From positions 32,001-96,000 of IMG/VR virus record IMGVR_UViG_3300020203_000008: a stretch of DNA of 64,000 nt, one strand, 5' to 3'. The number at the start of each line of letters is the position of its first letter. Position 1 is the stretch's first letter. The notes below the pieces were generated by a model. It saw nothing but the letters and a program-made list of their open reading frames with translations, did not search any database and was not told the origin of the DNA. This document shows positions 2,978 through 31,191 of this stretch, in pieces. Source of the DNA: a virus. Both the position numbers and the translations under genes were made by a program.

Positions 2978-3247
2978 CTACTCATTTGGTCCCCGTACTA
3001 TTCTGTAGCCGTTCTCAACCATCCACAGCGATAGCAGTTTGAGAGTGGCGTGGACTACGGACTGGTCATGGGCTCCAGATAGCTCTGGCTCCCCCAGGAT
3101 TGCCAGCACAGCTTCTTGTGGGATGATCTGATCTAGTTGTGCCACTTTATCCGCTCCTCCGTTCCAGGCGGGCTGCATCTTCTTTACGAGCATATGTAAG
3201 ATAGGATGATTCGACATCATCCCTTTGCCTCTAGATCCGTCTAGCAT
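2978..3247 (-). CDS. hypothetical protein (true start may be ~30 nt downstream)
   Basis: Part of a tightly coupled leftward gene run. Confidence 0.6.
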   Translation of the reverse strand: MLDGSRGKGMMSNHPILHMLVKKMQPAWNGGADKVAQLDQIIPQEAVLAILGEPELSGAHDQSVVHATLKLLSLWMVENGYRIVRGPNE

Positions 3248-3486
3248 GAAAACTCTTTAGGATCCTTGATGCAGTAGATCCCGACGTTGTTCTTCTTCGC
3301 TTTGATCTTCTTGATACGGCCCTCTTGGGAGAGATCGGTCATCGCTAAGCTCATGGTCGCATTCGTAACCCGGAACTCATGGGCTACTTCCGTTTGGTAA
3401 ACTTCAGTTAAATGCTGATGTGAGTCTTTAGCCCTACGCCAGAGGTACTCGTGCAGGATCTCCCGATCTAGCTTGCGACCCTGCAT
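3241..3486 (-). CDS. winged helix-turn-helix DNA-binding protein
   Basis: QTEVAHEFRVTNATMSLAMTDLSQEGRI pattern typical of wHTH. Confidence 0.65.
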   Translation of the reverse strand: MQGRKLDREILHEYLWRRAKDSHQHLTEVYQTEVAHEFRVTNATMSLAMTDLSQEGRIKKIKAKKNNVGIYCIKDPKEFSC

Positions 3487-4094
3487 TAGAACGGTTGCCT
3501 TGTTGCTCTGAACTGATCGTGGTCTCTTGTCCAGGCATCTCGTTCTTGTTCTGACATATTACGAAGCCTCTTGCGGTTCTTGATCGTCATAATTGCCCAT
3601 TCGTCAGCGCACCTGTCGCAAACAAAGTGCCCATCCGGAATCCCTTCTTCTAGAATGGGACTTGCTTGAAAACGTGGAACGCTATAATCACAGAACTTAC
3701 ATTCCCGCCATCTAGGACTTTTCCTGCATGGATCGCAAATGTATGCCCAGATTCCACGTTGGTTTGGGTAAGCAGGATGTAGACGTGTGAGTACTTCTTC
3801 TTTGCAGTCGAGACAGATGATTTTAGGTTTTTTGGCCCAAAGATTGGGCTCATCGAAGTAGTTGTGGAAACAAGCCATATGAAAGTATTGGCGCATGGTG
3901 AATATCTGCCCACCTTTTTTAGGCTTTATAGTTCTGCCTGTTCCATACATGACAACCATCCGACGCTCACCTTTTATGATTCGGTGATGACAGATGCTGC
4001 ACGAACACATTCTTCGAACGTCGTCAGAAAAGATTGTGAAACTAGCATGAGGTAGTGGCAGGGCTCTGATGTTCCAATGACGAGGTTTATGCAC
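3486..4094 (-). CDS. multi-Cys zinc-finger hypothetical protein
   Basis: Several CxxC/HxxC motifs over 202 aa; coupled to neighbours. Confidence 0.65.
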   Translation of the reverse strand: MHKPRHWNIRALPLPHASFTIFSDDVRRMCSCSICHHRIIKGERRMVVMYGTGRTIKPKKGGQIFTMRQYFHMACFHNYFDEPNLWAKKPKIICLDCKEEVLTRLHPAYPNQRGIWAYICDPCRKSPRWRECKFCDYSVPRFQASPILEEGIPDGHFVCDRCADEWAIMTIKNRKRLRNMSEQERDAWTRDHDQFRATRQPF

Positions 4095-4365
4095 GGTTCA
4101 TCCTGTTCTTAAAAGCGGGGGCTGCGAGAAAGGCTACGGCTTTTTTCGAAGGGACTTTCACTTCTTCACGAGTTTTAGGATTTACCCGAACTACTTCTTG
4201 GCGTTGTCGAGGTACGAATCTTCCGAAGTTGGGGATAGTGACCGATTCACCACAGGCCAGGCTCAGTTGGATCGTCGCCAGGATCGTGTCCAGGATCTCC
4301 TCCACTTTCGGATTCGCTATTCCGGTTGCGTCTACGGCTACCTGGATAAGGTCTGAGCGATTCAT
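4087..4365 (-). CDS. hup: HU/IHF-family histone-like DNA-binding protein
   Basis: MNRSDLI...VTIPNFGRF...RVNPKTREEVKVPSKKAVAFLAAPAFK matches the HU signature. Confidence 0.9.
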   Translation of the reverse strand: MNRSDLIQVAVDATGIANPKVEEILDTILATIQLSLACGESVTIPNFGRFVPRQRQEVVRVNPKTREEVKVPSKKAVAFLAAPAFKNRMNRA

Positions 4366-4564
4366 CCTTCTCCTGAATGGGGGAGATGACTCCTACGGCG
4401 TCGAAGTCTGCTTGCTCTGCTGGTCTTAAATTAATTCCACAAGCGGGACAGAAGTAGTTGTAGATCTGGGATGGCAGAGCCACCCACCATGTACACCAGC
4501 ATCGCCCGCGGATCGTTCCGGGTGGTAGTGGTTCTAAAGTTTCCTGCTGCTGCTCGCCGCTCAC
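4247..4564 (-). CDS. hypothetical Zn-ribbon protein (C-terminus overlaps HU gene)
   Basis: CWC...CPACG motifs; GTG start overlaps upstream TGA. Confidence 0.5.
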   Translation of the reverse strand: MSGEQQQETLEPLPPGTIRGRCWCTWWVALPSQIYNYFCPACGINLRPAEQADFDAVGVISPIQEKDESLRPYPGSRRRNRNSESESGGDPGHDPGDDPTEPGLW

Positions 4565-4719
4565 AGGTAGCGCTCATTAGGCCAAATCGTGATTACTGAA
4601 ACTGAACCTGTACCGTGACACTTAGAACAGCTCGGTGCGAGATGCCAACTGAACGAGCACTCGCTACAAGGGATGCGCGGGTAGAATTGAAATTCCTTTT
4701 CGAGGAGACTTTTGTTCAT
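4561..4719 (-). CDS. 52-aa protein with DnaJ-like CxxC...CxxCxGxG zinc finger (below ORF-track cutoff)
   Basis: Manual translation MNKSLLEKEFQFYPRIPCSECSFSWHLAPSCSKCHGTGSVSVITIWPNERYL*; stop overlaps next GTG. Confidence 0.65.
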   Translation of the reverse strand: MNKSLLEKEFQFYPRIPCSECSFSWHLAPSCSKCHGTGSVSVITIWPNERYL

Positions 4720-4867
4720 ACTACCAAGAGTTTCTCATGCGTTGGCCCTTGTTGCAAGTATGTAGTTCCTTGCGTTGTCCAGTTTCTCCGCCCATACTGG
4801 GAAGTCGAATCTAAGAAGTCAGATTAAGTAAGTCAGGTTGACCTTGCCGGGAAGGTATGATCCCGGC

Positions 4868-5122
4868 GCTGAGCAGATGCTGTAGTGATCTCAGGCTCAC
4901 CTGTCACCGTAGACAGGAGAGAGCCTGGTCATGATGTCCCTTTCGGGGGACCTCTCGCTGCGAGGGCAGGCGCACGGAAACGTGTTAGCTGGTTCTGCCT
5001 GAATTAACTCTTGTAAGAGACCAGAACGTGCGTAAGTCTTTAAACTGTGCAGCTCCGTTACGCTCCCGGTAGGGGGGACACCTGCGTCTAGGTAGGTTTC
5101 ACCCGAAGGGTTGTCTTTGCTC
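4868..5122 (+). ncRNA. putative structured non-coding RNA of unknown class
   Basis: Nested helices, UUCG and GAAA loops, 5'/3' closing stem and an upstream TATGAT box in an ORF-free region (see findings). Confidence 0.45.
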
Positions 5123-5295
5123 GATCGCTCGCGATCGTCGGCCGTAGGCCGCTGGGGTTGACCTTTCCTGCGCCTGCGGCGCGGGTCACAACGGCCTTCG
5201 GCCTAAAAAGATGGCTGCAAAAGGGTGCTTGTTCCGCTTGGTTGTTTGGTGTATCTTGTCGATAACGTATTAGTCCCGCTTGTTGTGGAGGGTCT

Positions 5296-5514
5296 GTGCA
5301 GTTCCGGATTGGTGAGCGTGTTCGTAACTTATTGAATGGTGTTGAGGGTACGGTTGTTCAGGTGTTTCCTGACACTTGTGGCCCGAGGCGTGATGGATCC
5401 ACAGTATTAGTTGATTATGATGCTGTGGTAACATTTGAGGACGATGAGGATGTCGTTGTTGTTCCGGCGCGGCAGGGTCATTCGTTTCGTCGCTTCCTAC
5501 AGAAGGTTGAGTAG
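5296..5514 (+). CDS. small SH3/KOW-like hypothetical protein
   Basis: FRIGERVRN...GTVVQV pattern; GGAGG RBS. Confidence 0.6.
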   Translation: MQFRIGERVRNLLNGVEGTVVQVFPDTCGPRRDGSTVLVDYDAVVTFEDDEDVVVVPARQGHSFRRFLQKVE

Positions 5515-6834
5515 GTGAATTATTTCACTGCGTGTGAGCGTTGTGGTGATCGGTTTGAATCGAAGCCTGGTAAGCGTTTCTGTAAGGAAGGTTGCCGAAA
5601 GGCTTATAATAAGAAGGCTACTCGTGCAGCCGTGAGTTCTGGTGGTGTGACGGCTTCTCAGGGTTATGAGCGGATCCGGAAGCTTCTTGAAGATAACGAT
5701 ATCCCTGGAGATGCTATCGGTGAAGTGAAAACGATTCGTCTTAATGAGTGGACTGCTCTCGCTAAGGGTGAGATGGTTTTCGATGAGAGCGGGAAGGGAC
5801 ATCGGGAAGCTACTCGGGAAGTTCCGATGAAGTCGGCTTCGATTCTTCTTTCGCCTTCTTGGGCGGAGGGGCCGAAGTGGCCTGTTGTGCAGTCTGCTCC
5901 TCTTAATGTGAAGCCCTTGAAATCTAGGGCGAAGAAACGTCCTTCGGTTGGCTGGAAGACTGCGTTGATCTTGCCGGATCCGCAGGTTGGGTATCGTCGT
6001 GACATTCAGACCGGCGAGTTGGATCCGTTCCATGATCTGCGTGCGATTGATGTCGCTAATCAGATCTTGGCGGATGTCATTCCTGACACGGTGATTCTGT
6101 TGGGGGATTGCCTTGATTTTGCTCCTTTCGGGCGGTTTGTTCAGGAGCCATCGTTTGCTTTGACGATCCAACCAGCGATTAATTATATGGGTGCTTGGCT
6201 GGAACAGATGCGGTTTACCCTTCCAGATGCTGACATGCGGTTCATTGAAGGTAACCACGATCTTCGTTTGCAGACATCTATTATCAATAATGCTGCCGCA
6301 GCTTTCGGTATTAAGGCTGCTAATAAGCCAGATTCGTGGCCCGTATTAAGCGTCCCTAACCTCTTAAATCTGGATGCTCTTAATATTCAGTATGTCTCAG
6401 GGTATCCTGCCGGAGCCACCTATCTGAATAATCAGCTCGCCTGTGTCCACGGTTTGAAGGTCAAGTCGGCGGGTTCGACTGCCGCTCAAGTCATTGACGA
6501 CGAACGAGTTTCTACCATTTTTGGGCATGTCCATAGGATCGAGACAGTATATAAGACCAGGAACTCTAGGGGGAAGCCGAAATTCTCGATGGCTCATACT
6601 CCAGGCTGTTTGGCTCGCATTGATGGTGGAGTACCTTCAACAAAATCTGGTATCGATCCTCATGGGCATCCCGTCAAATCGTTTGAAAACTGGCAACAAT
6701 CAGTCAGTTTGGTGCGATATGAAGAAGGCGATGGCCGGTTTGCTATTGAGAGCATCCCGATTTGGGAAGGTTGGGCTCTCTATAATGCTAAAGAATATCG
6801 TTCCCAAGTCGATATGAAAGGGATGGCTGTCTAA
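5515..6834 (+). CDS. calcineurin-like metallophosphoesterase with N-terminal Cys motif
   Basis: PDPQVG, LGDCLD, GNHD, HG and GHVH motifs. Confidence 0.85.
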   Translation: MNYFTACERCGDRFESKPGKRFCKEGCRKAYNKKATRAAVSSGGVTASQGYERIRKLLEDNDIPGDAIGEVKTIRLNEWTALAKGEMVFDESGKGHREATREVPMKSASILLSPSWAEGPKWPVVQSAPLNVKPLKSRAKKRPSVGWKTALILPDPQVGYRRDIQTGELDPFHDLRAIDVANQILADVIPDTVILLGDCLDFAPFGRFVQEPSFALTIQPAINYMGAWLEQMRFTLPDADMRFIEGNHDLRLQTSIINNAAAAFGIKAANKPDSWPVLSVPNLLNLDALNIQYVSGYPAGATYLNNQLACVHGLKVKSAGSTAAQVIDDERVSTIFGHVHRIETVYKTRNSRGKPKFSMAHTPGCLARIDGGVPSTKSGIDPHGHPVKSFENWQQSVSLVRYEEGDGRFAIESIPIWEGWALYNAKEYRSQVDMKGMAV

Positions 6835-25281: not shown

Positions 25282-26243
25282 TGGATAAGATTCTTGTAGC
25301 AGGGGCGGGAGGGTTCATAGGTGGACATCTAGTTGCCAACCTTCTTTCTAAAGGCATAGAGGTCGTCGCTGTGGACGTAAAGGATTTTTCGAAGTGGTAT
25401 CAGAGATTCCCTGACGTTGATAATAGGATTCTTGATCTCTCCTTAATGGAGGCTTGTTATGAAGCAGTCAAAGGTGTAGATGTAATTTATAATCTAGCTG
25501 CCGATATGGGCGGAATGTTGTTCATTGAGACCCATAAGGCTGAGTGCATGCTTAGCGTATTAATTAATACCCATCTAGTGCAAGCAGCTAGTGATGCTAA
25601 TGCCAAGTTCTTCTATGCTTCATCAGCCTGTGTTTACGCTGCCGATAAGCAGACTGATACGGATGTCACGGCTCTGAAAGAAGAAGACGCCTATCCCGCT
25701 ATGGCCGAGGATGGCTATGGCTGGGAGAAGTTGTTCTCTGAACGTATGTGCAGGCATTTTCGTGAAGACTTCGGATTAGATACTCGCGTTGCAAGATTCC
25801 ATAATGTCTTCGGCCCCAATGGGACTTATGAAGGTGGCCGTGAGAAAGCTCCAGCCGCCATATGCCGGAAGATTATCGAGTGTAAGCTGTCCGGGAATCA
25901 TGAGATAGAGATTTGGGGAGACGGCAACCAGACCCGTAGCTTTATGTTCATTAGTGATTGCATTGAGGGCATTAATAGAATTATGGAAAGTCAGGTAGTT
26001 GATCCTATTAATCTTGGTTCTCATGAATTGGTTAGCATTAACCAACTAGTAGATATCGTTGAAGATATAGCGGAAATCAAGGTCAAGAGGAACTATGACT
26101 TGACTGCACCTCAGGGGGTTCGTGGTCGCAATAGCGACAACACGATGATCCTGCGCGAGTTGGGTTGGCAGCCGGAGATCTCCCTGCGGGAAGGCATGGA
26201 GAAGAACTACCGTTGGATTTATAATCAGATCGTGTCGAAGTAA
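25281..26243 (+). CDS. NAD-dependent epimerase, GDP-mannose 3,5-epimerase-like
   Basis: GAGGFIG, NLAADMGGM.FI, YASSACVY, YGWEK, GGREKAPAA.CRK, GVRGRNSDN. Confidence 0.9.
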   Translation: MDKILVAGAGGFIGGHLVANLLSKGIEVVAVDVKDFSKWYQRFPDVDNRILDLSLMEACYEAVKGVDVIYNLAADMGGMLFIETHKAECMLSVLINTHLVQAASDANAKFFYASSACVYAADKQTDTDVTALKEEDAYPAMAEDGYGWEKLFSERMCRHFREDFGLDTRVARFHNVFGPNGTYEGGREKAPAAICRKIIECKLSGNHEIEIWGDGNQTRSFMFISDCIEGINRIMESQVVDPINLGSHELVSINQLVDIVEDIAEIKVKRNYDLTAPQGVRGRNSDNTMILRELGWQPEISLREGMEKNYRWIYNQIVSK

Positions 26244-26926: not shown

Positions 26927-27487
26927 ATGGCTAATGATCCGCGTCTGAGTGTTTTCTTGAGTTTGAATGCCGAGGGCCGCAAGGTCCCCTGGCAGGAACG
27001 CGTCAAGCTGATTCATGATGTTTTCCCTTCTACCACACAGATGGACTGGCGGAAGGCATTCAATGACATAGATCTATTTGGTCGAATCCTTCGTGACATC
27101 CTGAAGGTAGATCAGACTTCGCCTGGTCGTAGTGGGCCTCGTCCAGTGCTTGACCGCAAGAAGGCAACAGAACGCCTTCGCCAATTCATGGGCGCTGACT
27201 TTTCGGATGCCATATTTGCTCAGGCATTCCGAGAGCTTTGTGGAGACAAGTCTGTCCGTGGTGTTGCAGCCAAAACTGGACTTGAGAAGACGATGGTCCA
27301 GAATCTGTTAACGGGAAAGCGACAGCCTGACGTTCAAATTATGGAACAGGTTGCGGAATCTTTTAAGAAGGATCCGTCTTACTTCTTTGAATATCGTGTT
27401 GCCTACGTGCTTGCAGCTCTAGGTGACAAAATGGCTGGTGCTCCAGAGATGACAGTGGATCTCTACAAAAGATTAAGGGGATCGTAA
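26927..27487 (+). CDS. HTH DNA-binding protein
   Basis: SVRGVAAKTGLEKTMVQNLLTGKRQP (XRE-like HTH). Confidence 0.7.
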   Translation: MANDPRLSVFLSLNAEGRKVPWQERVKLIHDVFPSTTQMDWRKAFNDIDLFGRILRDILKVDQTSPGRSGPRPVLDRKKATERLRQFMGADFSDAIFAQAFRELCGDKSVRGVAAKTGLEKTMVQNLLTGKRQPDVQIMEQVAESFKKDPSYFFEYRVAYVLAALGDKMAGAPEMTVDLYKRLRGS

Positions 27488-30400
27488 TGGGCGTTATTGA
27501 GGATCTATCTGAGGAAGAAGCGTATCTTTGGGCCATTTTGCAGGATGAATCGGGTTTGGATGTGGCTGAGTTTACATGGCATGATCCTGAGCAAGATGAT
27601 GGTTGCTGGCGAGCTTGGGCTTTTCAGTGGTCATGGTTTAGGGATACCTCACCGCTACAGATAGATCAGTCGGCGAGATCAATTGGCAAGTCTTTGTCAA
27701 TTAAGCTTCGGGCTTTTGTTTTTCCCTTTATACACCCTGGACAGGAGATGGTTATTACGGCTCCAGAAGGAGTACATATTGATGCCATCACCGATATTAT
27801 TGAGACTCAACTCATCTCTACGCGCCTATCTTTAGAGATGTTGCGGGGTGGTCGGTTGTCTTTTAAACATAAACCTTTTCATGTGAACTTCCAAAATGGA
27901 TCTCGTATTATGGGAAGGATTCCTCAGCGGTCTGGAGTGGGAGTGAAGGGTGTCCACCCTATCTGGCTAGAGCTTGACGAAGCGTCCGATTATCCTTCAG
28001 ATGGCTGGACGGAATTGATGGAAACCCTAAAGCGGGGGCATAAGGGAGCTGTGTGGCGTTGTCATGGCGTTACAAGAGGTGTGAGAGATAAGCACTATTA
28101 CAGGTTTACTGCTGATCCTAATACGCAATGGCGAGTACATAGATATAGCAGTATGTGGCGTCCTACTTGGACTGATGAGGAACGTCAAGAAAAGATTATG
28201 CAATATGGGAGTAAGGATGATCCTGATTATAGAAGGAATATCTTAGGACTTCATGGCGATAGTGTTTCTCCGATTTTTGTTCTCTCTCGGCTAATGAACT
28301 GCGTCGATGACGATAAAGAGTCAGATTATAACGCAGACGAATATCAATTCTTTAAAATTAATGATTCGCTACTTGCTGAGCAGAATGTAGATATTATCCA
28401 GCTTCTGGACTTTCCGCCTTATCACTTAAGTAAGTACAATACCTTTTGGGTGGGGATGGATGTAGGTATGACTAACCATCCGTCCGAGATTTTGATTTTT
28501 GCGGAAGAATTGCTGAAGCCATCAAGTGAAGAATATAAGACTCTTAAACGTCTGGGTAAAGCGATTTCTATTGAGGGGAAACCTCGCCTCAAACTCGTAA
28601 CGAGAATCAATCTGACCCGTATTGCTACTCCTGATCAGGTGAGAGCAATGCTATGGGTCATTGACTTCTATAAGCCACGGGCGTTTTCTCTTGACAAGAT
28701 GCAGCCGGTGAGTGAACCCGTTCTGACTCCTTCGGGTTGGGTGCCAATTGGAAGTCTGTCCGAGGGTGATCTCGTTATTGGGTCGGACGGTGCAGCTACA
28801 AAGGTCGTAGGGGTATTCCCGCAGGATGATCGTCGTGTCGTTCGTGTGACTTTTTCTGATGGTTCTTCGACGCGGTGTGGGCCGGAGCATTTGTGGACTA
28901 TCAAGCTTCGTAAGCGTCGTTGTGTTGAATCAATGTCTGTAACGACGGGGCAGATGATGGAACTGGCCCGTCGTTATGGTTCTTCGAAGATTACGATTCC
29001 CTTATTGTCGGGTCCTGTGGAATACGAACAGGGGCCTGAATTACCAATCGATCCCTACGTGTTAGGTTGCTTGCTAGGTGACGGTAATCTGCGCCTCAAC
29101 GGCATCAGGTTTTCTAGTGTGGACGAGGAAATCTTAGATAATATGCGAAGCCGTCTTCCCGAGGGTTTTGAGGTGAAACATACAGATCGCTGTAACTATA
29201 TTGTGAAAGCAGATGGATGGAGGCATGAACGGAATTCTAAGGGACAGTTCTGCCATCGCAATCCAATCCTTGATGTCCTACGTGATCTTGGTTTGGCTGG
29301 TACTCATTCGTGGGATAAATTTATCCCTGAAGTATATTTGCGAGCTACACCCGATGAACGTCTTGAATTACTTCGCGGCCTGATGGACACGGACGGCTAT
29401 TGCAGTGTGCAAAATGATGGTTGCACTATTGCCATAAGGTTGTCATCAGAAACGATGATTCGTCAGATTGGTGAGTTGGTGCAATCATTGGGTGGTGTGA
29501 CTAGGTTTCGGGATTTCACTACATCTTGTAATGGTAAGGCTGGGCGGCACGGATATCAGGTTACGATGGGTCTTCCTGTGGGAGTCAATCCGTTTCGTTT
29601 GAGCAGAAAGCGAGATGCCGTTATTCCACGTAGGCGTGCAATTACTCGCCACTTGGAAGCCATTGATCCGCAACCAGATGAGCAGTCTGTTTGTATTCGG
29701 GTGGCGGCAGAAGACGAGTTGTATGTCACTCGCGACCATATCCTTACCCATAATACCGGAATTGGACTTCCTCTTTTCCAGGAGCTTCAAGATAAAAACC
29801 GTCAGGCTGGAACTGTTGTAAAGGGTTATGGTTTCTCCGAGAAGCGTCTTGTTGGGTTCGATGAATCGATTGAAGTCGAAGAGGGTATTAGTAATGATGA
29901 TCTGGCCAAAGAGGCTGGTATCATGCGTAATGTAGTTGAGTATGCTTGTGTAGATGAAGAAACTGAGTTGTTGACTAGGCGAGGATGGAAACATTATCAA
30001 GAAGTAATAGAAAACGAAGATATATACACTTTGGATTGGCATTCACAGAAAGGCGAATGGGTTCCTGTTGAGAAGATTCTTCAATATGAGGGTTCGCATC
30101 CAGTTCGCCATATACGTACTCGTTGTTTTGATGCCGTGACAACACTTAATCACCGATGGTGGACGGAACGTTATGATCCTTATTCCAAGAAGCGAATTCG
30201 AGAGTGGAGAACAACAGATACGCTGCGAGCCGCATCGTCTATTCCTTTGAGGGCAGAGCCGGGAAGTAATCCTATTGAGTCTATTTATAGTGATTCGCTT
30301 GTCGAACTAGTCGCTTGGTTCTGGACGGAAGGTCACTTCAGAAGAGGGCGTAAATCCTTCTGTGGTGCAGGGCTAGCTCAGTCTGAAGATGTCAATTCTG

Positions 30401-31191
30401 TTTATGTTAAGAGAATACGCGAATGTATCGAGGAAGTATTTGATAAAAAAGATTGGCGACAATCCTCAAGAAATGGGATGGTTGAATGGCATTTGTCTGC
30501 TGTTGCGGCACGATTTCTTAACCAATATGTAACGGCCTATGAAAAGATTGTTCGACCTGAGTTTATTGCTTCTCTTACTTTAGAACAACTCAATTTGTTT
30601 ATTGAAACTTCAATTGATGCTGATGGATGGCGTCAAGTTGATGGAGCTAAGCTGGGTCAGTCTTCTCTGGATCGTTTACGATCTTTTGAAATGGCGTGTG
30701 TATTAGCGGGTAGATCTATTCATACTTGGCAGCGATCCGATCTTACAGGATGGGTAACTACTCTGCTAGTTCGAGATAACGTTACCCCCATTTCGACTTG
30801 TAAGATTTCGAGAAATGTTGAAGTGAGAACCCTCGACTACAATTATTCTGGAATTGTTTGGTGCCCACGGTCTCGTAACAATACTTTTTTGGCTCGTCGG
30901 AATGGTTCCATCTATTACACGGGAAATACAGATAAGCTTCGATTGCTGGTGGATGAGAAGCGTCTCTGGTTACCATGGGACGAAGATCTTATTGCTGAAT
31001 ATCAAGGACAGACCTACAAGGTTGTTCGATCAGCTATGAATCAATATGGGAAGAAAGAGTTCAGTCAGGGTAAGTTCCACGCGTTAGATGCTTCTCGAAT
31101 GGCTATCTTGGGATGGGCTCAGTATCAGATTGAGGAGATGATGGGCGAGAAAAATAAGGTTGAACCGGTCCTAGAACGCTTCGGACTTTAA
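27487..31191 (+). CDS. terL: terminase large subunit with two inteins (~555 aa after splicing)
   Basis: Walker A ARSIGKS, Walker B LELDEA, nuclease GMDVG, reconstituted LDK|TGIG, C-terminal HALDA; upstream of portal. Confidence 0.9.
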   Translation: MGVIEDLSEEEAYLWAILQDESGLDVAEFTWHDPEQDDGCWRAWAFQWSWFRDTSPLQIDQSARSIGKSLSIKLRAFVFPFIHPGQEMVITAPEGVHIDAITDIIETQLISTRLSLEMLRGGRLSFKHKPFHVNFQNGSRIMGRIPQRSGVGVKGVHPIWLELDEASDYPSDGWTELMETLKRGHKGAVWRCHGVTRGVRDKHYYRFTADPNTQWRVHRYSSMWRPTWTDEERQEKIMQYGSKDDPDYRRNILGLHGDSVSPIFVLSRLMNCVDDDKESDYNADEYQFFKINDSLLAEQNVDIIQLLDFPPYHLSKYNTFWVGMDVGMTNHPSEILIFAEELLKPSSEEYKTLKRLGKAISIEGKPRLKLVTRINLTRIATPDQVRAMLWVIDFYKPRAFSLDKMQPVSEPVLTPSGWVPIGSLSEGDLVIGSDGAATKVVGVFPQDDRRVVRVTFSDGSSTRCGPEHLWTIKLRKRRCVESMSVTTGQMMELARRYGSSKITIPLLSGPVEYEQGPELPIDPYVLGCLLGDGNLRLNGIRFSSVDEEILDNMRSRLPEGFEVKHTDRCNYIVKADGWRHERNSKGQFCHRNPILDVLRDLGLAGTHSWDKFIPEVYLRATPDERLELLRGLMDTDGYCSVQNDGCTIAIRLSSETMIRQIGELVQSLGGVTRFRDFTTSCNGKAGRHGYQVTMGLPVGVNPFRLSRKRDAVIPRRRAITRHLEAIDPQPDEQSVCIRVAAEDELYVTRDHILTHNTGIGLPLFQELQDKNRQAGTVVKGYGFSEKRLVGFDESIEVEEGISNDDLAKEAGIMRNVVEYACVDEETELLTRRGWKHYQEVIENEDIYTLDWHSQKGEWVPVEKILQYEGSHPVRHIRTRCFDAVTTLNHRWWTERYDPYSKKRIREWRTTDTLRAASSIPLRAEPGSNPIESIYSDSLVELVAWFWTEGHFRRGRKSFCGAGLAQSEDVNSVYVKRIRECIEEVFDKKDWRQSSRNGMVEWHLSAVAARFLNQYVTAYEKIVRPEFIASLTLEQLNLFIETSIDADGWRQVDGAKLGQSSLDRLRSFEMACVLAGRSIHTWQRSDLTGWVTTLLVRDNVTPISTCKISRNVEVRTLDYNYSGIVWCPRSRNNTFLARRNGSIYYTGNTDKLRLLVDEKRLWLPWDEDLIAEYQGQTYKVVRSAMNQYGKKEFSQGKFHALDASRMAILGWAQYQIEEMMGEKNKVEPVLERFGL
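28699..29754 (+). mobile_element. class 3-type intein with LAGLIDADG homing endonuclease (352 aa)
   Basis: Begins MQPVSEPVLTPSGW, ends ILTHN before Thr; EHLW, SVCIRV, THN; LGCLLGDG and LRGLMDTDG. Confidence 0.88.
29947..30927 (+). mobile_element. class 1 intein with LAGLIDADG-like endonuclease (327 aa)
   Basis: Begins CVDEETELLTRRGW, TLNH block B, ends RRNGSIYYTGN before Thr; AWFWTEG and SIDADG. Confidence 0.88.

Follow-up and report, generated by a model that had tools for sequence, protein, structure and literature searches.

The DNA analysed here, referred to as the window, is a 64,000-nt stretch corresponding to bases 32001–96000 of a 136,572-bp IMG/VR virus record with a completeness rating of 96%. 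The genome is tightly packed, most of its genes between about −22 kb and 71 kb (window scale) point rightward, and it has a non-ORF share of about 10%, tRNA genes included. It carries 38 tRNA genes (ARAGORN), one with an amber-reading CUA anticodon, and one phage tmRNA gene (Rfam score 73.3 bits). All 38 tRNA genes and the tmRNA gene lie on the plus strand, and the last of them ends at position 2015, 2.9 kb upstream of the stretch discussed below. The longest ORF-free gap in the genome (4720–5295, 576 nt) is bounded by the ATG of a leftward block at 4719 and the GTG of the first rightward gene at 5296. An earlier reading made from the letters alone (hereafter the sequence-only reading) had described the region as free of ORFs, and it indeed contains no table-11 ORFs of at least 60 aa. 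The G+C content of the gap is 0.545, vs 0.493 for the window. For positions 4828–5295 it reaches 0.566, which is above the 0.42–0.55 found in the 12 gaps marked as divergent on a crude gene map and argues that the gap contains more than promoters; the same value falls within the range of the tRNA-bearing gaps (0.46–0.61). For a promoter-only spacer, the gap is unusually long and G+C-rich.

On the left, the gap is flanked by a leftward island of 5–6 genes (2978–4719) inside an otherwise rightward genome half. With its four ORFs of at least 80 aa, the island is the lone block of its kind within the rightward region. Its members, all on the minus strand, are an 89-aa ORF, an 81-aa winged-helix-like protein, a 202-aa zinc-ribbon protein, an HU protein (4087–4365; PF00216, E = 1e-20) encoded 350 nt from the gap, and a 52-aa ORF (4561–4719). 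The last of these is the first leftward ORF and carries the zinc-finger-like pattern CxxC...CxxCxGxG. On the right, the first plus-strand genes (5296–6834) encode a 72-aa ORF and then a 439-aa metallophosphoesterase. Because the genes at 2978–4719 point leftward and those from 5296 rightward, two promoters must lie in 4720–5295.

Promoter-like signals are concentrated around a perfect 7-bp inverted repeat, GCCGGGA/TCCCGGC, at 4846–4867 (arms 4846–4852 and 4861–4867, 8-nt spacer), which occurs once in the window against an expectation of 0.01. The hexamer TATGAT (4856–4861) sits in the loop of this repeat, as the sequence-only reading had claimed; it is the best −10-like element on the plus strand and lies 7 nt before 4868. 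TTGACC (4838–4843) is just 12 nt upstream of TATGAT and so offers no usable −35. A scan of 4680–5330 for sigma-70-like pairs (−35/−10 hexamers 16–19 nt apart, at least 8/12 matches) found none on the plus strand of the gap and two on the minus strand, namely CTGACT-17-TAGATT at 4808–4836 (8/12), directed at the leftward genes, and a second pair overlapping the start codon at 4719. According to PMC10268837, a −10 element in which −11 is A and −7 is T can serve either strand, with the two start points separated by 18 bp. Applied to TATGAT, this would place bidirectional starts at 4868 and 4850, which is a reading and not a result; every TANNNT hexamer has the same both-strand property. From this arrangement we infer that the palindrome is a candidate operator over a −10 box possibly firing both ways. 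A search for a promoter or operator word common to the genome's intergenic gaps gave nothing convincing. By eye, a weak −10/−35 pair can also be seen just upstream of 5296; its use would leave the hairpin block untranscribed or make it a separate unit.

About ten palindromes lie in the gap and all differ in sequence, which favours pairing within a single strand and argues against repeated sites for one protein. Left of the 4846–4867 repeat are two small hairpins (4808–4825 and 4830–4844) whose imperfect pair is G-U on the minus strand and A-C on the plus strand. To its right lies a two-part hairpin at 4891–4928 (7 + 6 Watson-Crick pairs and one U-G; z = −4.9), followed by the 6-bp plus-strand hairpin GTCCCT-TTCG-GGGGAC (4936–4951). 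Further right, a plus-strand stem pairing 4970–4976 with 5027–5033 encloses a second pairing of 4989–4995 with 5017–5024 that includes CTGGT/ACCAG, and competes with the local hairpin GCACG-GAAA-CGTGT (4972–4985). Beyond these are a 6-bp plus-strand hairpin with one G-U pair (5080–5097), the palindrome CGATCG-N4-CGATCG (5122–5137), and a long imperfect inverted repeat or compound hairpin at 5140–5206 (−34.9 kcal/mol, z = −3.6). The latter is followed by AAAAA on the plus strand, with no U-tract on either strand, and would be non-canonical as a terminator; no intrinsic terminator (G+C-rich hairpin plus U-tract) was found anywhere in 4400–5600. The imperfect pairs within these elements are G-U on the minus strand at 4808–4844 and G-U on the plus strand at 4936–4951, 4952–4966, 5080–5097 and 5167–5185.

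The segment around 4891–4951 holds several overlapping elements. The 5' half of the 4936–4951 hairpin falls within an 11-mer (4935–4945) that has only three copies in the genome; the other two, neither of them within a hairpin, fall in the record's final 300 nt, where TGTCC-type boxes are numerous. On the minus strand, a Shine-Dalgarno-like GAAAGGGA (4944–4937) precedes an ATG (4932–4930) and an 11-codon frame ending with TGA (4899–4897), so that the whole occupies 4897–4944 and the frame spans the 4891–4928 hairpin exactly. The 19 nt at 4926–4944 on this strand match the ribosome-binding site and start of a minus-strand gene beginning at 104269 (window scale) at 18/19 positions, with a BLAST E-value of 0.064 within the genome. 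This start look-alike may be a leader frame, may derive from the copying of a start region, or may be fortuitous. A LexA-type site (CTGT-N8-ACAG) noticed by eye in the hairpin at 4900–4917 was dismissed: its centre is G+C-rich, and it is explained by the palindrome itself.

The sequence-only reading had gone further and drawn 4868–5122 as a single plus-strand RNA of about 250 nt, closed by long-range stems around a multi-way junction and containing a possible pseudoknot. Every motif that it had placed was confirmed where it had been put, including GAGCAGA (4871–4877)/TTTGCTC (5116–5122), GCTGTA (4879–4884)/TGCAGC (5048–5053), the hairpins at 4892–4927 and 4936–4951, and CTGGT (4989–4993)/ACCAG (5020–5024); those it had left unplaced map to CTCTCG at 4952–4957 with CGAGGG at 4961–4966, and CAGGC at 4967–4971 with GCCTG at 4997–5001. 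Pairing probabilities were computed in four sequence contexts, i.e. the exact cut 4868–5122 and three wider ones. The 4892–4927 hairpin, at 0.97 or above in all four, is the sole helix stable everywhere, while the 4936–4951 hairpin ranged from 0.36 to 0.97 and CTGGT/ACCAG from 0.61 to 0.91. The closing stem GAGCAGA/TTTGCTC held at the exact cut (0.94) and was lost in the three wider contexts (at most 0.10), and the helices GCTGTA/TGCAGC, CTCTCG/CGAGGG and CAGGC/GCCTG stayed at or below 0.11 throughout. With flanks added, the 5' end pairs elsewhere, for example 4843–4852 with 5064–5073. The proposed pseudoknot between CTGGT and ACCAG is unneeded, as the two form an ordinary nested helix in the minimum-free-energy fold, extended by 4970–4976/5027–5033. 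The best fold keeping all of the drawn helices reaches −94.1 kcal/mol, 5.9 worse than the minimum of −100.0 kcal/mol. Only the 4891–4928 hairpin, the 4936–4951 hairpin and the CTGGT/ACCAG helix are predicted to survive a change of boundaries.

Comparisons with shuffled sequences gave a similarly divided picture. For 4868–5122, z was −1.88 on the plus strand (5 of 200 shuffles as good) and −2.21 on the minus strand (2 of 200). The wider region 4830–5215 scored −3.53 and −4.63, respectively, with 0 of 100 shuffles as good on either strand. The signal comes from the two ends: among 100-nt windows, only those at 4775–4975 and 5100–5225 fell below their shuffles. The segment 4798–4940 gave z = −5.85 (minus) and −3.49 (plus), and 5125–5224 gave −3.55 (minus) and −2.2 (plus). 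The middle, 4950–5125 (175 nt, most of the proposed junction), ranged from about −1.4 to +1.4 over both strands, and the 100-nt windows over the 4970–5033 stem were not below shuffles on the plus strand. Plain hairpins with stems of at least 6 bp numbered 12 on the plus strand vs 11.2 ± 4.4 in shuffles, i.e. no excess. Relative to the genome itself, the region was no outlier, ranking 212th (plus) and 59th (minus) of 1414 dinucleotide-corrected windows of 386 nt. In an RNALfold scan the best local plus-strand element of the gap (z = −4.9) fell outside the top 25 of 217, and the minus-strand element 4798–4940 ranked 8th of 213.

As a control, the phage's own tmRNA was put through the same test. 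Its true strand gave z = −1.60, with 9 of 100 shuffles doing as well, and its wrong strand −2.31. In this genome fold energy thus counts neither for nor against an RNA, and it does not tell the strand. This calls for caution, in that within this genome a true tmRNA scores worse than the stretch under study and the wrong strand better than the right one; judging hairpin density by eye is thus no way to tell RNA genes apart from other non-coding DNA that is rich in G+C. The suggestion that G-U pairs favour an RNA from the plus strand did not hold up either, as the minus strand undercuts its shuffles by at least as much. Taken together, the end-dependent stems, the nested "pseudoknot", the shuffle-like central 175 nt and the lack of a plus-strand preference weaken the model of a single RNA of about 250 nt that would contain a multi-way junction and a pseudoknot. 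What was seen in the letters, local hairpins included, is real, but this particular RNA model is unsupported.

Searches for known families and for relatives of the stretch were negative in the collections used. In an Rfam 15 covariance-model search, with each family's gathering score as the criterion, the only matches in the 64 kb were two tRNAs far from the stretch. At 4600–5350 the best E-values were 1.7–9.3, all far below gathering and all on the minus strand, and ARAGORN found no tRNA or tmRNA in 4720–5295. A known RNA family is thereby rejected for the stretch, and the initial impression that it belongs to no described family stands. By blastn, no homologue was found in 50,697 phage records. 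In related loci, taken as sets of 19, then 44 and then 149, the best blastn E-value was 0.38 and nhmmer returned nothing at E ≤ 1. The phage's own genome contains no paralogue. A covariance model of 4882–5041, built from one sequence and run over about 974 kb of loci, matched only itself in the window and 99 loci, gave four matches in 57 further sources (E = 0.42–2.7, none credible) and none in five whole virus records. BLAST against 401 bacterial genomes from one phylum, reached via an Eggerthellaceae locus, likewise gave no match. An exact 19-mer had two matches in IMG/VR, both in the same unrelated A+T-rich coding sequence and attributable to chance, and an exact 20-mer had none. One 28-nt match was seen in G001 (E = 0.009).

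Relatives of the metallophosphoesterase were found in sets of 19, 25 and 80 loci, all at most 53% identical in IMG/VR, and a protein that is 64% identical (P0002) is encoded on a 140-kb contig. None of the 19 mapped metallophosphoesterase loci has a divergent gap, and ORF-free gaps of at least 220 nt numbered only two in the 149 related loci. No relatives of the 202-aa and 72-aa neighbour proteins were found that could serve as synteny anchors. Best identities were 54% for the portal protein and 39% for HU, and the phage is without close kin in the collections searched. With no relative sharing the same arrangement, conservation cannot support a function for the gap.

Overlooked protein-coding capacity was considered from several sides and rejected. 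Reading TAG as glutamine revealed nothing protein-like by eye. Recoding by table 4 would join 4932–4534 on the minus strand into a 132-aa frame from the ATG at 4932 to the 52-aa gene. TGA ends 67 of the 147 ORFs of at least 100 aa, and the genome holds no tRNA reading TGA, which counts against such recoding. A decayed gene was likewise rejected, since none of six stop-free fragments matched PHROGs or Pfam at E ≤ 1. The longest stop-free frame (101 aa, 4900–5202, minus strand) has no start codon, family match or homologue.

The explanation that we favour, with a probability of about 0.4, is a divergent promoter/operator region between two gene blocks, with structured leader RNAs on one or both sides. 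The stretch would then be one further structured control region, in a phage that is itself an orphan, and not a single folded RNA of 250 nt. Transcription would start near the 4846–4867 palindrome, on one or both strands, and the palindrome itself could bind a dimeric repressor such as the 81-aa winged-helix protein encoded in the leftward cassette. On this view the rightward operon would have a long, structured 5' leader made up of the G+C-rich hairpins at 4891–5206, and the leftward cassette a leader made up of those at 4808–4844, with the hairpins presumably acting in cis to modulate RNA stability, pausing or the start of translation. The robustness of local hairpins only, and not of closing stems, is more in keeping with a leader than with a closed, compact RNA. 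The switch of the G-U strand around the palindrome hints at starts in both directions there, an argument from about eight pairs in a region with a G+T-rich plus strand. Start sites and transcribed strands in the gap are guesses. Against the leader reading, z is stronger on the minus strand over the whole region (−4.63 vs −3.53), so that a rightward leader is not favoured by energy, and the implied rightward leader would be long, at 428 nt.

A discrete, undescribed, trans-acting RNA from the plus strand, spanning about 4868–5206, driven by the TATGAT promoter and ended by the 5140–5206 hairpin, strikes us as unlikely. It would account for the longest ORF-free gap of the genome, for a G+C content that resembles the tRNA-bearing gaps and exceeds every divergent-marked one, and for a strand shared with the 38 tRNA genes and the tmRNA gene ending 2.9 kb upstream. 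The −10 box 7 nt ahead of 4868, the lack of a match to known families, and a fold energy (z = −3.53, 0 of 100 shuffles, 4830–5215) stronger than that of the phage's own tmRNA (−1.60) are also consistent with it. However, the 5140–5206 hairpin has no U-tract to end such an RNA, the minus strand scores better, the central 175 nt fold no better than their shuffles, the region is no outlier among the genome's own windows, and the junction as drawn is unstable. The collections searched supplied no homologue and hence no covariation. A fuller version of this idea, in which an orphan RNA of about 340 nt is made from the plus strand by a −10-only promoter set in a palindromic operator, adds a further non-coding gene to the phage's set and could target translation or RNA decay in the host, is on balance rather unlikely. 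If a stable RNA were made, it would be an orphan non-coding RNA in a phage with an unusually heavy investment in RNA genes.

The gap might instead have no function of its own, being a leftover at a module junction where the leftward island was inserted among rightward genes, its hairpins having arisen by chance in DNA rich in G+C; we regard this as rather unlikely too. Such an origin would be in line with a fold energy that is no outlier within the genome, with plain hairpin counts equal to those of shuffles, with the absence of relatives in any search, and with an island that is the lone block of four ORFs of at least 80 aa. It fits poorly with a compact genome in which this gap is nonetheless the longest, with z-scores of −3.5 and −4.6 (0 of 100 shuffles), and with the absence of any trace of a decayed gene (0 of 6 fragments; no homologue of the 101-aa frame). 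The same sequence is present in contigs from microbial-mat runs and one soil run, with no RNA run among them, and 4720–5295 is identical across contigs of four runs from four studies. This identity weighs little, as the entire phage hardly varies among those contigs; the sole differences between them are two in one run (X7), at 5393 and 5455.

Use of the minus strand, either as a long leader of the leftward cassette starting to the right of 5206 or as a non-coding RNA of that strand, is improbable, and the same judgement covers the version of the leader in which a hairpin-sequestered Shine-Dalgarno sequence and the 11-codon frame would provide translation-coupled control. Here z is more negative on the minus strand wherever it is significant, but the true tmRNA likewise does better on its wrong strand and the asymmetry proves little. 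The 18/19 match of 4926–4944 to the start region of a real minus-strand gene and the exact coverage of the 4891–4928 hairpin by the 11-codon frame would suit this arrangement; however, the E-value of the match is 0.064 and the frame could be chance. The sigma-70 scan (4680–5330) found no minus-strand promoter to the right of 5206, and the candidate site for the cassette (4836–4808) lies downstream of the structures. A DNA-level element is also improbable, be it an origin of replication, a site of single-strand initiation or a platform bound by some protein that attaches to the genome end as well: fold excess on both strands, an HU-type DNA-bending protein encoded 350 nt away, and the 11-mer at 4935–4945 that recurs only in the TGTCC-rich last 300 nt of the record would agree with it, but that 11-mer is present in a single copy at the stretch, replication genes are 55 kb distant, iterons, direct repeats and an A+T-rich unwinding stretch were not found, and cumulative GC skew has no turn here (extremes at −26022 and 70928, window scale), so that an origin was rejected.

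Several known systems offer points of comparison for the favoured divergent control region and for the alternative of a discrete RNA. The lambda nut and HK022 put elements are promoter-proximal, cis-acting RNA elements or leaders of phage operons in which pairing matters rather than sequence. Going by this general description, the present locus resembles them in having hairpins directly downstream of a putative promoter at the head of an operon. Unlike them, it is far larger, with about 340–430 nt and about ten hairpins, and neither an antitermination partner nor a downstream terminator was identified here. GOLLD and ROOL are large phage-borne non-coding RNAs found near tRNA clusters, and both are in Rfam. 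The stretch shares with these a phage genome, a large tRNA array nearby, a length of several hundred nt and many stems; it differs in that no Rfam family reached the gathering score at the stretch, nor E ≤ 1 at 4600–5350, and in that the leftward gene island separates it from the tRNA array.

Bidirectional bacterial promoters have a near-symmetrical −10 element (PMC10268837, citing Warman et al. 2021). With this type the locus has in common the divergent genes and one −10-like hexamer readable both ways, with implied starts at 4868 and 4850. The flanking 7-bp palindrome does not belong to the type described there, and the starts given here are read from the letters of the DNA. Candidate structured RNAs of viruses identified by comparative genomics are reported to show nucleotide covariation (Fremin et al. 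2023, PMC10690425). The stretch is like those candidates in being intergenic, in coming from a metagenomic phage record and in possibly being cis-regulatory upstream of genes; unlike the covarying candidates described there, it is without a homologue in the collections searched.

Enrichment of HIP1 as the mark of a cyanobacterial host was rejected, as HIP1 occurs once vs 2.2 copies expected. Relatives of the metallophosphoesterase in named phages comprise 49 records, nearly all of them actinophages, whose organism names begin with Streptomyces (29 records), Microbacterium (13), Clavibacter (3) or Rhodococcus (2); in the remaining 2 the name begins with Bordetella. The distribution of these relatives among named phages hints at an actinobacterial host.

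On the minus strand of the hairpin-rich, ORF-free gap between the leftward and rightward gene blocks (window 4720-5295), positions 4897-5202 form a stop-free frame of 101 aa, in which no ATG, GTG or TTG occurs before the last 11 codons. Searches with this frame returned neither a family match nor a homologue. The 11-codon ORF at its end (4932-4897) shares a reading frame with the 52-aa gene that begins the leftward block (4561-4719, minus strand), and the two can be joined across 4534-4932 under translation table 4, where all five of the stops read through are TGA. This coincidence was judged to be chance, because TGA terminates more ORFs in this genome than either other stop codon.

Comparison of the record with a soil-metagenome contig (run X7) over window 4409-5800 revealed differences only at 5393 and 5455, namely an insertion of 3 nt and one G>A substitution, each of which falls within the 72-aa ORF, the first rightward gene, and preserves its reading frame.

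The regions whose fold energy truly stands out from the rest of the genome lie elsewhere in the record, at window-scale 100399-103293 (piece L162) and -24086 to -23508 (piece L159). On the plus and minus strands alike, their fold energies are 3 to 5 SD lower than the dinucleotide regression predicts, with RNALfold z-scores down to -9.2, and the hairpin-rich stretch in the 4720-5295 gap is far less extreme than either. Numerous TGTCC, TTGTCC and TGTCA boxes are clustered at both ends of the linear record, within its final 400 nt (L163) and its initial 300 nt (L159), and may mark termini, packaging sites or origins. The 11-mer at window 4935-4945, the 5' half of a hairpin (4936-4951) in the gap, is shared by two of these boxes.

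A tmRNA gene is located on the plus strand outside the window, at genome positions 25477-25856 (L160:5677-6056; Rfam, 73.3 bits), and its tag peptide, as predicted by ARAGORN, ends in ...YEGALV. The 38 tRNA genes, all on the plus strand, extend from genome position 8260 to 34015, reaching window position 2015. One carries the anticodon CUA of an amber suppressor (labeled Pyl by ARAGORN) and is contained in the -24086 to -23508 outlier region. TAG is the rarest stop of the phage genome, terminating 25 of the 147 ORFs of at least 100 aa. Lastly, a 1234-aa ORF at window 27487-31191 contains a LAGLIDADG domain (PF14528, residues 624-675) and may encode a large intein-bearing protein.
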